DNA of 64,000 bases from Chiloscyllium plagiosum (lineage: Eukaryota): assembly GCF_004010195.1 (NCBI RefSeq), contig NC_057749.1, positions 15,309,726-15,373,725 on the forward strand. The letters run 5' to 3'. How positions within the stretch are numbered: position 1 is the stretch's first letter; each line of letters opens with the position of its first letter. This document shows positions 12,452 to 57,951 of the stretch, one piece after another. Under the pieces are notes generated by a model that did no database searches, was not told the DNA's origin, and saw only the letters and a program-made list of their open reading frames with translations. The translations under genes were made by a program, and so were the position numbers.

Positions 12452-12583
12452 TGATTTCCTGAAGAAGGGCTCATGCCCGAAACGTCGATTCTCCTGCTCC
12501 TTGGATGCTGCCTGACCTGCTGCGCTTTTCCAGCAACACATTTTTCAGCTCTGATCTCCAGCGTCTGCAGTCCTCACTTTCTC
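12452..12583 (+). mobile_element. Short Penelope-derived element (family P2) with hammerhead core
   Basis: TTTC-CTGAAGA-A-GGGC-TCAT-GCCC-GAAA-CGTC-GATT at 12455-12490; TSD ctatgtc at 12445-12451 and 12584-12590. Confidence 0.75.
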
Positions 12584-19395: not shown

Positions 19396-19539
19396 GTAAA
19401 AATAAGGACTGCAGATGCTGGAAACCAGATTCTTGATTAGAGTGGTGCTGGAAAAGCACAGCAGTTCAGGCAGCTTCCAAGGAGCAGGAAAATTGACGTT
19501 TCAGGCAAAAGCCCTTCATCAGGAATAGAGGAATCATGG
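19396..19539 (-). mobile_element. Short Penelope-derived element (P2 variant) with hammerhead core
   Basis: gacgtttcaggcaaaagcccttcatcaggaat; near-perfect TSD aaccaacYgtccag at 19382-19395 and 19540-19553. Confidence 0.7.
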
Positions 19540-28558: not shown

Positions 28559-28739
28559 GTGACTTGGAGGAGCCGATGTTGGACTGGGATCGACAAAGTT
28601 AAAAATCACACAACACCAGGTTATTGTCCAACAGGTTTACTTGGAAGCACTAGCTTCCAAGGATGAAGGAGCGACGCTCCGAAAGCTAGTGCTTCCAAAT
28701 AAACCTGTTGGACAATAACCTGGTGTTGTGCGATTTTAA
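28559..28739. mobile_element. Palindromic Penelope-derived element (P1)
   Basis: Two inverted arms of about 65 bp; TSD caatgacagagc at 28547-28558 and 28740-28751. Confidence 0.8.
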
Positions 28740-32532: not shown

Positions 32533-32730
32533 GGAGAAAGTGAGGACTGCAGATGCTGGACATCAGAGCTGAAAAATGTGTAGCTGGAAAAGCGCAGCAG
32601 GTCAGGCAGCGTCCAAGGAGCAGGAGAAGCGACGTTTCGGGCATAAGCCCTTGCCCAAAACGTCCATTCTCCTGCTCCTTGGATGCTGCCTGACCTGCTG
32701 CACTTTTTCAGCAACACATTTTTCAGCTCA
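32533..32730. mobile_element. P2 Penelope-derived element with inverted arms, inside a Deu-type SINE
   Basis: gctggaaaagcgcagcaggtcaggcagc...gctgcctgacctgctgcactttttcagc. Confidence 0.7.
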
Positions 32731-35354: not shown

Positions 35355-36445
35355 CGAGCATAAGAGGTACAGTTAGTAAGTTTGCAGTTGACACCAAAAT
35401 TGGGGTGTGGTGGACAGTGAAGAAGGTTACCTCAGATTAGAATGGGATCATGATCAGATGGAAATGTGTTGCTGGAAAAGCGCAGCAGGTCAGGCAGCAT
35501 CCAGGGAACAGGAGAAGAAGGGCTTATGCCCGAAACGTCGATTCTCCTGTTCCCTGGATGCTGCCTGACCTGCTGCGCTTTTCCAGCAACACATTTCCAG
35601 CTCTGATCTCCAGCATCTGCAGACCTCACTTTCTCCTCATGATCAGATGGGCCAATGGGCCAAGGAGTGGCAGATGGAGTTTAATTTAGATAAATGCGAA
35701 ATGCTGCATTTTAGGAAAGCAAATCCTAGCAGGATTTATACACTTAATGGTAAGGTCCTAGGGAATGTTGCTGAACAAAGAGACCTTGGAGTGCAGGTTC
35801 ATAGCTCCTTGAAAGTGGAGTCATGGGTAGATAGGATAGTGAAGAAGGTGTTTGGTATGGTTTCCTTTATTGGTCAGAGTATTGAGTACAGGAGTTGGGA
35901 GGTCATGCCACTTTTGGAATATTGTGTGCAATTCTGGTCTCCTTCCTATCAGAAAGATGTTGTAAAATTTGAAAGGGTTTAGAAGGATGTTGCCAGGGTT
36001 GGAGGATTTGAGCTATAGGGAGAGGTTGAATAGGCTGGGGCTGTTTTCCCTGGAGCGTCAAAGGCTGAAAGGTGACCTTATAGAGGTTTATAAAGTAATG
36101 AAGGGCATGGATAGGATAAATAGACAGAGTCTCTTCCCTGGGGTGGTGGAGTCCAGAACTAGAGGGAATAGGTTTAGGGTGAGAGGGGAAAGATATAAAA
36201 GAGACCTAAGGGGCAACGTTTTTCACGCAGAGAGTAGTATGTGTATGGAATGAGCTGCCAGAGGAAGTGGTGGAGGCTGGTACAATTACAACATTTAAAA
36301 GGCATCTGGATGTGTATATGAATAGGAAAGGTTCAGAGGGATATGGGTCAGGTGCTGATAGGTGGGACTAGATTGGTTAGGATATCTGGTCGGTTGGACT
36401 GAAGGGTCTGTTTAAGTGCTGTACATCTCTGTGACTCTATGATTC
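35355..36445 (+). mobile_element. CR1-clade LINE RT and 3' fragment
   Basis: WQMEFNLDKCEMLHF...EQRDLGVQVH...LEYCVQFWSP and LKGDLIEVYKVMKG; tail ctctgtgactctatgattc. Confidence 0.9.
35462..35636. mobile_element. P2 Penelope-derived element nested in CR1
   Basis: Exact inverted arms; 14-bp TSD tcatgatcagatgg at 35448-35461 and 35637-35650. Confidence 0.85.
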
Positions 36446-54492: not shown

Positions 54493-56120
54493 GCTATAAG
54501 GAATTTGCTAATCTCTTTAGATAACTTCGAGGAGAGATTGGGAGAACCCCAAGTCTACATGCCTGAAATGGGAAGCGTTTCATTGCTAAGACTTGCCTGG
54601 AATCACAGTAATGTTTAGGTGTAAACAAATGGCTCATTAAAGTTTGTTTGTAAGGTCCACTATGCACCACTGCTTCACTAAAAGATCATGATTGAATATT
54701 AATGATACACCAGAAAATGTGTCTGCGCCAGAGGTTATGTATAGCACTTCTTCATCCAATGGTTATGCTCCAGTATAAATTAACATTACAGACATAATAG
54801 TTTCTAAACATCGCAAACCTACATAACTCTCATTTGAAAGGTACCTGCTGTTCCCTGAACTTGTCTGTACAGTAAGAATTTGTATGAGGGATTCTGATGA
54901 TGCAGAGGACAAAGGAGACCTGGGTTTTGGTTTCACCTGCTCCAGAGGTGTGTAATGACATATCTGACTGGGTTGAGAGAAAATATGTAAGAAGTTGTAT
55001 GATGTTATAATCTAGAATGTAGAAAAGTTCCCTCACCAATCCCGAATTTGGGTAATTTCACTTGTGCAAAGTAAGCAGGTAAGAATTTCCCAGATTATTG
55101 AATAAAATCACATCTCTTTATTTAATCAATCAACTGCATATTCCCAGACTTTAAGTTGTACATTTCAATAAAACAAACTCTAATAACAATTACTTTTGAT
55201 TAAGGACACCCATCAATTGCAAACAAAGACCTAAACTGGAGAATGTATGTATGATTCATTCGAGGATAATTGGAGCTGGGTCCTAAGAGTGAGGGTGGAA
55301 TTCAGAAACTTTAGGGTGAGGTGGGGAAGGAGGGGATGAAAGCATTGGAGAGCTCATAGGAAAGGCTGGTGAGGAAGGGCATTTAGAAGTTTGGAAATGT
55401 GTACCGCGAACAGGATGTCTGATTGCAGAGCAGTGCCTCAGGTAACCGTGCTGTATCCCCAGGAGGTAAGTGAGGAGCTCGCTTCCTGGATCCAGCTGAC
55501 TACACCTGGGTTAGGCTGCTGAGGTTCTCCAAGGCTCAGGGGCCTAGCCATTTTTAGTTTCACAACATCACTATATAATATAAAAACTCAAACTACAGAT
55601 TGATCAACCCACACATTCACTGCCTCTGTAAAGGCAAACAATTGTTGGGGTCGGGATGGAGGAGCTGCAGGCAGCTTCAGACATCCAATGGTTTTAGGAA
55701 AATAGGAACAGGAGGTGGCCACTCAGCCCATCATCCTTTCCCATCATTCAACATGAACATGGCTGATCAAACCTTTGACCCACACTATTCTTGGAACTCT
55801 GCATGCCACTTAATGTTTTAACATTTCTATTTGTGGACGTCTACAGACCGTGAATATAGTAACATCACTAAGAAAGTCAATCATCATTGGCAATCACTTA
55901 CTAACAAATACGATTGTCCACTGGAAATTCCATGTCACTGGTCATAGGCTCTGTGAGTCCTTATGTGACCAATGTGCTGATCCTAGAACCAAAGATGTGC
56001 TGGTGAGGTGACTGAAATTGGTAAACGTCCTCATAGTGTCGAGGGATGTGCAGGTTAGGTGGATCAGCCATGGGGAATGTAGGGAGAGGGTCCAGGCTGG
56101 CTAGGATGCTCTTCGGAGGG

Positions 56121-56812
56121 ATAAAATCACACAACACCAGGTTATAGTCCAACAGATTTATTTGGAAGCACTAGCTTTTGAAGCACTGCTGCTTCATCAG
56201 GTGGTTGTGGAGGAGGATCATGAGACAGAATTTATGGCAAAAGGTTACAGTGTCATGCAATTGAAATGATATATTGAACAAACCTCGATTGTTGTTAAGT
56301 CTTTCATCTTTTAGAATGGGGTTGCAGGTTTCGATTCATTAACATGTAAATCCCAGAACTTCTTTCAAGTCACATTCTCAAGATAACTTAAGGTTTTATA
56401 AAAAAAAAGTGACATCTCAGCTCAGACAAGGCATTAATTATATTGCAGACAAAATGCACAGTCTGCAGTCAGTCAATGCAGGCAGTTGATCCATGCAAAT
56501 ATTTTGTAAATTCCACTTCGGAAATAGAACCAATCTGACTCAAGACTGGGATACAGAATGACTCTAACCTCACACCTTTAAGGCATTGTCTGAGCTGAGA
56601 TGTCAGCATTTTTTTACAAAACCTTAAGTTATCTCGAGAATGTGACTTGAAAGAAGTTCTGGGATTTACATACTATTCTCCACAACCACCTGATGAAGGA
56701 GCAGCGCTCCGAAAGCTAGTGTTTCCAAATAAACCTGTTGGACTATAACCTGGTGTTGTGTGATTTTTAACTTTGTCCACCCCAGTCGAAGACTGGCTCC
56801 TCCACAACATGG
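56121..56812. mobile_element. P1 Penelope-derived element with nested inverted repeats
   Basis: Terminal arms 56122-56212 and 56678-56768; internal arms about 56344-56435 and 56583-56671; TSD cttcggaggg at 56111-56120 and 56813-56822; inserted in an HE1-like tail. Confidence 0.85.
56687..56721 (+). ncRNA. Minimal type I hammerhead ribozyme motif
   Basis: CAC-CTGATGA-A-GGAGC-agc-GCTCC-GAAA-GCTA-GTG: helix I CAC/GTG, conserved core, 5-bp helix II, palindromic AGCU in place of helix III, CUA cleavage triplet. Confidence 0.7.
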
Positions 56813-57951
56813 CTTCGGAGGGTTGGATTGGACTTGATTGGCTGAATGGCTTTTTTCCACACGATAGGGTTTCTATGATATATTTACGATTCTATAGAGT
56901 TGAATCTCTGTTCGCACGTCTGGCAACTGTTTACCAGAAGGTGGAAGGTGGTCCTTGGACTTGAGATCATTGGCATTCCTTTCTCAGCTTCTTTTTGCTG
57001 ATGGGTGTTCTTGGGAGAACAGAAAATGAATAGGAAATTCAGAAAAAACCTTGTTACTCAGAGTGGTGAGCATGTGGAATTTGCTACTGCAGGGACTCAC
57101 GGAGATGAACAGCAAGGCTGCATTTTCAGGTTGCTGGATTAGGTTCGGGGGTGGTTGGAGAGGAAGGATAAGTGCTTTGCTTGATGACGTTTGAATGGAG
57201 GAAAGCTTCAGCGAAGGACGAGCTCTGGCACAGTCTGGTTGTGCTGTACATTCTCCGTAATTTATGCAGCCACAAGCTGCGAACTGCATAACTTCATTCA
57301 CTACATTGTGCACATTATTTGGCAAAGTTAAAATGAAAAGTAGAAGCCTGTAGTAAAAGTATTAGCAACCTGCTCCATAACATGTGGCTTATATTTCATC
57401 AATTCCCATTCATCATTGAGAGCCAGCTACTGACATCTGGTTTTGTCTTCAACAACAATTTGATCTGAATTCCAACATATAACTTCCCGCTTAAAATATG
57501 GTTATCGACCACAGTTAAAGCTGGTTCACATTCTTTTTAATGTGACACTTCAAGTTCTACGTTGACCTCATAGATATAATAAATCACAGTAAAGGTTTGA
57601 AAAAATGCCGTTCGAAGTAATATTATACTTTCAGCACCCTAACATAAAATGTCCCAGGAATGCTTCTCTGGAGAGTTATGAGAGAACATTTGATATTGAA
57701 ACAAAGATAAGGATGGGGAATAAAAGTTTGGTCAAGGAGGTAACTTTTAGGGAGTGTCTTAAAGAAGATATACGTAGAGAGGCAGAGAGTTTTAGTGAGG
57801 GTAGGTTCCAGAGCTTAGGATCAAGGCAGCTGACAGTGTAGCCACCAACGGTCAAAGCAATCGCATCAAGGTTGTTTTGGAGGGAGATAACTGTGGGCCA
57901 GAACGCTGAGCATCATCCGAGCATTTTCAGGCACCATTCCACGGACATCAG

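Follow-up and report, generated by a model that had tools for sequence, protein, structure and literature searches.

Background

Penelope-like retroelements (PLEs) carry minimal hammerhead ribozymes (HHRs) in their pseudo-long terminal repeats (pseudo-LTRs), which have an extra base at position 9/10.1, a G10.1-C11.1 pair, palindromic positions 15.2-16.2 and a low activity in vitro, and which are frequently paired on opposite strands at a spacing of 100-700 bp (Cervera & De la Pena 2014, PMC4209133). Helix I of most described PLE hammerheads comprises 4-6 bp, and 2 bp in D. virilis (PMC4209133). PLE insertions are described in the accessible text of Craig et al. (2021, PMC8557442) as heavily 5' truncated, with an adjacent inverted and likewise 5'-truncated copy and a 30-40-bp tail that is often found at one end only. 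The protein of an Anolis PLE cuts and extends both target strands, and reverse transcription starts at two adjacent internal sites of the RNA, the interval between which is the tail; insertion in vitro does not depend on the hammerhead of this element, which itself needs the protein (Frangieh et al. 2024, PMC11167929). Here we analyse a stretch of 64,000 nucleotides of the shark Chiloscyllium plagiosum (NCBI RefSeq assembly GCF_004010195.1, contig NC_057749.1, positions 15,309,726 to 15,373,725 of the forward strand; hereafter "the window", with its first letter as position 1), in which a segment near the right end possesses a hammerhead motif, nested inverted repeats and a target-site duplication (TSD). 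Cartilaginous fish are not among the genomes named in the text of PMC4209133.

It is very probable that this segment, 56123-56812, represents one old and dead insertion of a high-copy, endonuclease-bearing PLE, a family that we call P1, and we hold the explanation as a whole with the same high confidence, i.e. truncated inverted arms, priming at two sites on two strands, and a conserved ribozyme module in the pseudo-LTR. In agreement with endonuclease-bearing (EN+) PLEs, as treated in PMC11167929 and in the accessible text of PMC8557442, P1 has an inverted truncated copy beside the forward copy and a one-sided tail, which measures 45 nt in the window copy compared to the 30-40 bp quoted in the latter source. 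The P1 hammerhead precedes two discrete 3' ends, which would correspond to two initiation sites of the reverse transcriptase (RT), an order also known from the Anolis element (PMC11167929). The open reading frame of the Anolis element starts inside the hammerhead (PMC11167929), whereas the ATG of the P1 box meets a stop after 8 codons, and at one long copy (locus L080, see below) open frames begin only 3' of the tail end.

Anatomy of the window insertion

Positions within P1 refer to a unit ruler, u1-513, which equals L065:8850-9362 in the reference copy; the CUGAUGA box lies at u389 and the predicted cut follows u418. The forward arm of the window copy is the 5'-truncated 3' untranslated end of P1, in which the hammerhead is followed by a poly(A) signal and then by the 45-nt tail. 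The second arm repeats this end in inverted orientation; it is likewise 5' truncated, stops 45 nt earlier and lacks the tail. Both arms are bracketed by a 10-bp direct repeat, CTTCGGAGGG, at 56111-56120 and 56813-56822, found in the repeat search and in the TSD survey of pairs. The initial annotation had claimed a 10-bp TSD around nested inverted repeats as part of a distinct family; the duplication is present, and in combination with nested inverted repeats it is a known pattern of PLE insertions (PMC8557442, accessible text) instead of the mark of a separate family.

The inverted arm (56123-56437, minus strand) covers u169-467 and has the tail-less 3' end, site A, as its outer boundary. It contains the decayed inverted copy of the motif that had been reported for the other end of the unit (56169-56203, minus strand), in which helix II is broken (GGAGC to GCAGC, GCTCC to GCTTC) and G12 of the GAAA box is mutated (GAAA to AAAA). 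At 56231-56236 (minus strand) it possesses CATAAA, a mutated form of a TATAAA block that is conserved in P1 36-40 nt before the CUGAUGA box. The head-to-head junction is occupied by 39 nt of filler (56438-56476), which match no part of the P1 unit. The first part of the forward arm (56477-56675, plus strand; u68-265, 87% to the reference copy) is separated from the second by the junction of a 113-nt internal deletion (56676-56678, plus strand; u266-378), which removed the TATAAA block from this arm; the inverted arm still has u266-378. The second part (56679-56812, plus strand; u379-513) is a "short-form" module of about 130 nt with the hammerhead, the poly(A) signal and the tail: the minimal type I hammerhead motif at 56687-56721, identified from the sequence and its fold; the poly(A) signal hexamer AAUAAA at 56728-56733 (AUUAAA in the other P1 subfamily); the poly(A) addition sites of P1 transcripts at 56745-56748, derived from reads that run into A tracts; a GU/U-rich block, CUGGUGUUGUGUGAUUUU, at 56750-56767, the end of which is site A; and the tail at 56768-56812, the end of which is the second 3' boundary, site B (all on the plus strand).

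Two inverted pairs result from this layout. The outer one joins 56123-56212 with 56678-56767 (90 nt, 93% complementary), and the inner one, which had been announced as a second pair of about 90 bp, joins 56344-56437 with 56578-56671 (94 nt, 93% complementary). A transcript across the unit is predicted to fold into a long hairpin (-344.6 kcal/mol, z -26.9). Its "loop", 56477-56577 without an inverted partner, is nothing but the longer 5' reach of the forward arm (u68-168) plus the 39-nt filler. The hammerhead of the window copy is without function and, if transcribed, would be buried in the 90-bp stem of the hairpin. The recurrences of the terminus noted earlier in the window are likewise real, with coordinates adjusted to 343/435-532 (plus), 9315-9398 (minus) and 28565-28656 (minus)/28662-28737 (plus), the last being a head-to-head pair.

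Linkage to reverse transcriptase and endonuclease coding sequence

The claimed Penelope derivation holds, since at other loci the P1 terminus occurs together with RT/GIY-YIG coding sequence on the same DNA. At locus L066 it lies about 560 nt 3' of decayed frames for the RT C-terminus and the endonuclease (EN), which match the RT C-terminus/GIY-YIG region of the genome's other PLE frames (tblastn E 2e-9 to 4e-13, 29-36%) and contain the motif VYLICC...YIGETG. In 8 of 11 other loci the terminus is found downstream of RT/EN coding DNA on the same strand, so that it is shared with a Penelope RT/GIY-YIG element, and several loci possess an inverted truncated copy upstream. A 517-aa open frame at L079 has an RVT_1 domain (Pfam E 4.4e-9) and is homologous to GIY-YIG-bearing frames. 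Its RT frame is 93% identical to that of L080, where terminus and tail (8-292) are followed by a 200-nt spacer and then, from 496 onward, by a long copy that runs from the 5' region into the RT frame. This layout, a partial copy ahead of a long copy, indicates the pseudo-LTR arrangement and resembles that of EN+ PLEs as described in the accessible text of PMC8557442; it was seen at this one locus, and L066 displays the same continuity from tail to 5' region. The hammerhead motif is positioned inside the P1 pseudo-LTR. P1 is about 3.6 kb in full length.

Given the linkage to RT and EN, the P1 copies are 5'-truncated ends of a coding PLE and therefore do not form a separate non-coding family. 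The initial annotation had envisaged an abundant non-coding family whose transcripts form hairpins; the abundance and the long hairpin fold stand, but the non-coding status does not. In the assembly of 3.56 Gb a first look returned 406 candidates for the 135-nt right terminus and 7640 for EN-coding DNA of the L066 type. Besides the window's own locus, 39 matches to the terminus are full-length and 89-96% identical.

Several candidates were discarded during this search. L059 and L054, taken as cases of EN and P1 in linkage, are chance neighbours, and at L015 and L021 P2 (a second PLE family, see below) or another repeat stands beside an independent short P1 insertion. A separate 778-bp element, suggested by the sharp boundaries of 40 hits, proved to be an artefact of the start of query homology and of the query end. 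The route to an autonomous partner by way of the Pfam GIY-YIG model returned mostly P2 loci, and L061 and L062, which have long open frames, yielded P2 copies and no P1-linked coding frame. Between the EN frame and the terminal module of P1, the 3' untranslated region (L066:8590-8900, L065:8600-8870) contains a CA-rich, microsatellite-like stretch, which gives T-H runs when translated.

Two 3' ends and paired arms

The 3' ends of P1 copies are sharply defined. Among 82 BLAST hits from the sampled loci plus the window (all end counts have this scope; the small contig L013 duplicates L065), 25 end at u467-476 (site A) and 41 at u504-513 (site B), and the interval of 38-45 nt between them is the tail. 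All 15 adjacent head-to-head pairs combine one arm that stops at site A with one that stops at site B, the 3' ends facing outward, and a TSD of 7-14 bp flanks 11 of the 15. Every pair therefore records a single insertion. The inner junctions vary from pair to pair (u74/215, u350/357, u388/391, u413/393 and others, with u169/68 in the window), and the hairpin was therefore made anew at each insertion. It is a by-product of integration and not a propagating non-coding hairpin family. At L004, L006 and L009 the final 3-5 nt of the tail (CATG/CATGG) also form part of the TSD, which makes the exact RT start ambiguous by a few bases and may reflect microhomology between target and template.

By analogy with the Anolis element (PMC11167929), the RT-endonuclease of P1 would have cleaved the target on each strand and used each of the two cuts to prime reverse transcription towards the inside. 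Priming would take place at two fixed internal sites of the RNA, A and B, 38-45 nt apart, and the two cDNAs would then be joined head to head, which would leave an inverted repeat and a one-sided tail.

A further comparison concerns the non-LTR retrozymes of animals, tandem hammerhead repeats that have been proposed as non-autonomous PLE derivatives; in the accessible part of Li et al. (2026, bioRxiv 10.64898/2026.07.22.740005) PLEs and retrozymes are reported for its one Chondrichthyes species, together with monomeric "solo" copies. P1 shares with the retrozymes, as far as they are characterized in that part, type I hammerhead modules homologous to PLE pseudo-LTRs. In contrast to the head-to-tail tandem retrozymes of the same text (10.64898/2026.07.22.740005), P1 copies occur solo or head to head, and no head-to-tail tandem array of the hammerhead unit was found in the window or in the small sample of P1 loci.

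The hammerhead motif

The hammerhead core reads exactly as the initial annotation had given it: CAC-CTGATGA-A-GGAGC-AGC-GCTCC-GAAA-GCTA-GTG at 56687-56721. The core C3 U4 G5 A6 N7 G8 A9 ... G12 A13 A14 is complete, with CTGATGA at 56690-56696 and GAAA at 56711-56714. A56714 and U56717 form the A15.1-U16.1 pair, H17 is A56718 (not G), and cleavage is predicted after this base. Helix II (GGAGC/GCUCC, loop AGC) has the G10.1-C11.1 closing pair and is preceded immediately by the unpaired A56697. The palindromic positions 15.2-16.2 (AGCU in P1, ACGU in P2) would permit a dimeric helix III.

The motif is not a product of chance. With at most 3 mismatches allowed, the 29-nt core pattern has 2 matches in the window compared to 0 in 100 shuffles, and a relaxed minimal-HHR descriptor has 8 compared to a mean of 0.33 and a largest value of 3 in 100 first-order Markov simulations; all 8 belong to two repeat families. 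With the HHRs of PMC4209133 the P1 motif has in common the CUGAUGA and GAAA boxes, the unpaired 9/10.1 base, the G10.1-C11.1 pair, a short helix I, the want of a helix III beyond the palindrome and the location in a pseudo-LTR, and, in its genomic distribution, mostly dispersed single motifs of truncated PLEs and opposite-strand pairs at 100-700 bp. It differs in a helix II of 5 bp, compared to the 7-8 bp typical of Schistosoma families, in a helix I of only 3 bp and in the cleavage triplet CUA (PMC4209133). Judged by its sequence features, the motif would belong to the minimal type I PLE hammerheads (PMC4209133), with a helix I that is short.

The second family, P2, is more abundant than P1 and has its own minimal hammerhead, CTGA[T/A]GA-A-GGGC-NNNN-GCCC-GAAA-CGTC. 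It has the same boxes, bulged A and G-C closing pair as P1, but its helix II is GGGC/GCCC, in which two pairs differ from P1 in both of their bases, and its palindrome is ACGU instead of AGCU. The only variable box position in P2 is N7 (T 31, A 17, G 3 in 51 copies). The EN regions of the two families are only about 30-35% identical. Both hammerhead forms were compared by eye, and a joint MAFFT alignment misaligned the GAAA boxes by placing a 1-nt length difference at the 3' end. Because the core is shared with P2 despite the changed pairs, we accept the P1 motif, on its sequence, as a genuine PLE minimal hammerhead. It would constitute the conserved ribozyme module of the P1 pseudo-LTR, likely processing multimeric or read-through RNA of the element, and, lacking a stable helix III, it would need either dimerization through the AGCU palindrome or the help of a protein.

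Transcripts, polyadenylation and 5' ends

Raw poly(A) single-cell reads with the same species label (run X19) were retained at a likeness of at least 90%. Under this threshold 2485 reads match, with a depth peak over 56685-56789; a further run, X20, has 0 matching reads. As 2074 of the 2485 reads are only 90-95% alike, they stem from other P1 copies, and nothing can be said on transcription of the window locus itself. On the family they are informative: 328 reads after 56745 and 502 after 56748 (830 in total) continue into long A tracts, and 94 reads have the mirror-image T tract before 56142, in the inverted arm. Poly(A) is added 12-15 nt past AAUAAA, and the RNA ends 27-30 nt past the hammerhead cut site. 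The reads with A tracts, together with AAUAAA/AUUAAA and the GU-rich block at 56750-56767, therefore identify a poly(A) signal in use. The used poly(A) site of P1 is located between the hammerhead and both genomic 3' boundaries, which is unlike the canonical description of EN+ PLEs, in that the signal stands between hammerhead and initiation sites. Among the papers found on PLE polyadenylation signals, none addresses a poly(A) site beside the hammerhead in its title or the opening of its abstract. In P2 neither AAUAAA nor AUUAAA is found within 75 nt behind the hammerhead.

The 5' ends of insertions are concentrated at the opposite edge of the motif. In P1, 30 of the 82 hits start at u373-394, and in a second analysis (BLAST) 22 of 55 arms have their first base 4 to 27 nt ahead of the box; read off the flank sequences, the 5' ends lie 3-10 nt before the CUGAUGA box. 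In P2, the starts of 38 of 87 arms fall within -9 to +8, and the most frequent one, -3, accounts for 12 (BLAST). The TATAAA block, about 30 nt ahead of the P1 5'-end cluster, is present 36-40 nt before the box in 19 of the 30 P1 arms long enough to include it. A TATA block is missing from P2; instead, a YYATTCC string is located at its hot spot, with its A 4 nt before the box. This string is initiator-like, and the distance between the TATAAA block and the 5'-end cluster of P1 would accord with the usual spacing of a TATA box and its start site. An RNA structure upstream of the hammerhead that is stable enough to stall the RT was not detected (z +2.5, +1.0, 0.0).

One possible reading, which we advance tentatively and would rate at somewhat below even, is that the pseudo-LTR works like a miniature LTR, in which the 5' edge of the hammerhead serves as the transcription start and the ribozyme comes first in the RNA. 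Retroviral LTRs follow the order U3-R-U5. P1 displays an LTR-like succession of TATAAA, the 5'-end cluster about 30 nt on, AAUAAA, the poly(A) site and the GU-rich block within a repeated terminal segment. Unlike a retroviral LTR element it lacks an integrase, a primer-binding site and identical direct LTRs; the promoter role of its TATAAA block is putative, and P2 lacks both the TATA block and AAUAAA. In Penelope of D. virilis, transcription has been mapped to start 46 nt ahead of a 75-nt intron (PMC2377424, accessible text), the 3' end of which abuts helix I of the hammerhead (PMC4209133). If the pseudo-LTR does work in this manner, the RT initiation sites of an ordinary, non-tandem transcript would lie only near its 5' end and the cDNA would run off the cap after about 90-130 nt. 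This would explain the commonest kind of copy, which is short and either solo or head to head and which the outer 90 bp of the window copy would exemplify, and full copies would need read-through or circular templates.

Alternative explanations

Several observations weigh against the explanation preferred here, and most of them concern the ribozyme. Helix I of P1 consists of only 3 bp (CAC/GUG), followed by a mismatch and two A-U pairs, and the monomer hammerhead folds no better than shuffles (z -0.79). Rfam hammerhead models have no match in the window, at the gathering score or at E up to 10; these models may miss the minimal form, in which helix III is down to two pairs and has no loop. (An Rfam match to MIR447, E 7e-4, mirrors the long hairpin and was rejected.) Conservation of the core above its flanks, a preset check, gave a null result within P1: in 60 arms the core boxes are 0.95-0.99 identical compared to 0.95 in the downstream flank and 0.92 in the upstream flank, and loop II alone is clearly more variable (0.74). 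Both core boxes are preserved in 34 of 47 gapless arms, and 16 arms remain wholly intact. Helix II has a sole compensatory change (copy 9363-9403), a number close to the chance level, with one double change expected under random decay, and within-family covariation was discarded as support. The pattern in the P1 core is that expected of decaying dead copies and gives no sign of selection. Nor do ends accumulate at the predicted cut: run X19 has no pile of RNA read ends there, none of the 82 P1 hits starts at u415-425, around the cut site, and the 5 of 87 P2 arms that start at +25..+30 are no more than those further downstream. Two points concern the element and its integration. Pfam makes no GIY-YIG call in the P1-linked frames, the GIY-YIG of P1 being assigned by tblastn (E 2e-9 to 5e-7) to Pfam-positive frames and by a motif recognized by eye. 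Priming on two strands is taken from the Anolis element in vitro, and a snap-back of a single cDNA could equally give equal arms.

The alternative that survives best stands on an axis of its own, separate from the identity of the element: the motif might be a conserved RNA module without self-cleavage, either a structure for protein binding or RT recognition, or a promoter or leader element. We regard it as unlikely, though it deserves consideration. The missing excess of RNA and insertion ends at the cut site, the weak helix I, the absent helix III and the clustering of insertion 5' ends at the 5' edge of the motif are all in its favour, and so is the fact that published minimal HHRs of metazoan PLEs are poor cleavers in vitro (PMC4209133) and that the Anolis HHR depends on protein, is dispensable for insertion in vitro and has no RNA-seq ends at its cut (PMC11167929). 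A module without catalysis is nevertheless difficult to reconcile with a catalytic core, a G10.1-C11.1 pair and palindromic positions 15.2-16.2 that are common to P1 and P2 despite their distant EN regions, or with a P2 box that varies at N7 only, the sole free position of the core; moreover, the Anolis motif does cleave, in a core-dependent manner (PMC11167929).

As to the identity of the element, the window copy could belong to a distinct, non-autonomous and non-coding foldback family, in which the ribozyme-tipped hairpin itself propagates by way of long hairpin RNAs. The very stable fold of the unit, the many further inverted pairs in the genome and a similar hairpin of 755 bp at L018 point in this direction. 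We consider such a family very improbable, because a propagating hairpin would not have inner junctions that vary by copy and arms that are often unequal, because the asymmetry of the A and B ends in 15 of 15 pairs is that expected of an integration event and 11 of these pairs have a TSD of their own, because solo arms and long copies that reach into EN/RT possess the same terminus, and because the central "loop" is only the further 5' reach of the forward arm. Finally, a DNA transposon or miniature inverted-repeat transposable element with 90-bp terminal inverted repeats, a 10-bp TSD and an incidental hammerhead-like string has next to no chance of being correct: inverted repeats plus TSD superficially resemble class II elements, and copies built as [left end..X][Y..right end] look like products of internal deletion, but the ends are asymmetric, with the 45-nt tail on one side only in all 15 pairs, many single arms have a retro-style 5' truncation, the TSD varies in length from 7 to 14 bp, and the terminus continues upstream into RT/EN coding sequence, with no transposase seen.

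The second family and other features of the window

P2 copies are found in the window at 12459 (plus strand), at 19522, 25408, 28375 and 45847 (minus strand), and also at 32658, 35512, 41697 and 46761. At L063 the P2 terminus lies about 155 nt behind a GIY-YIG frame. Like those of P1, the P2 3' ends (108 hits in loci and window) fall into two groups, 50 at +74..+96 and 45 at +120..+131, about 37 nt apart. A head-to-head P2 pair at 35456-35639 is flanked by a 12-bp TSD, ATGATCAGATGG, and consists of one tail-less and one tailed arm, as in P1. The solo P2 copy at 11112-11169 (plus strand; TSD AATATG) starts at GATTCTCC, which is the first base after the predicted cut (within one C), and is an anecdotal candidate for the cDNA of a ribozyme-cleaved RNA.

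The window further contains a decayed PLE RT fragment at 6019-6902 (plus strand; tblastn, 33-56% identity to PLE frames of other loci) and a match to tRNA at 8501-8573 (plus strand; Rfam RF00005, 65.5 bits). It contains 764 N in total, at least 15 of which run into the P2 copy at about 46761, so that some repeat copies are interrupted by an assembly gap. Sequencing runs that carry the labels of three further organisms (A, B and D) contain 0.12-0.29 of the sampled words of the stretch, and contigs of run X1, which belongs to one of the three, match mainly the repeat; the P1 terminus is probably shared with related species.

Conclusions

The object in the window is ordinary: a textbook PLE insertion, consisting of an inverted copy plus tail with a minimal hammerhead, of a kind that is very abundant in this genome, and the P1 family may already be named elsewhere. 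The result is first of all one of annotation, as the same reading will explain many similar inverted-repeat, ribozyme-tipped copies in the genome of C. plagiosum. Its wider value is modest, in that genomic copies lend natural-history support to the model of PLE integration obtained in vitro, with two RT starts and priming on both strands. This support comes from the sharp 3' ends of two families, and from the presence of one end of each kind per insertion in 15 of 15 P1 pairs. The data also bear on the role of the hammerhead in PLEs: insertion 5' ends have a hot spot at the 5' edge of the motif and no enrichment at the cut site, and the poly(A) site precedes the RT starts, which taken together suggests that hammerhead-cleaved RNA is not the main template.

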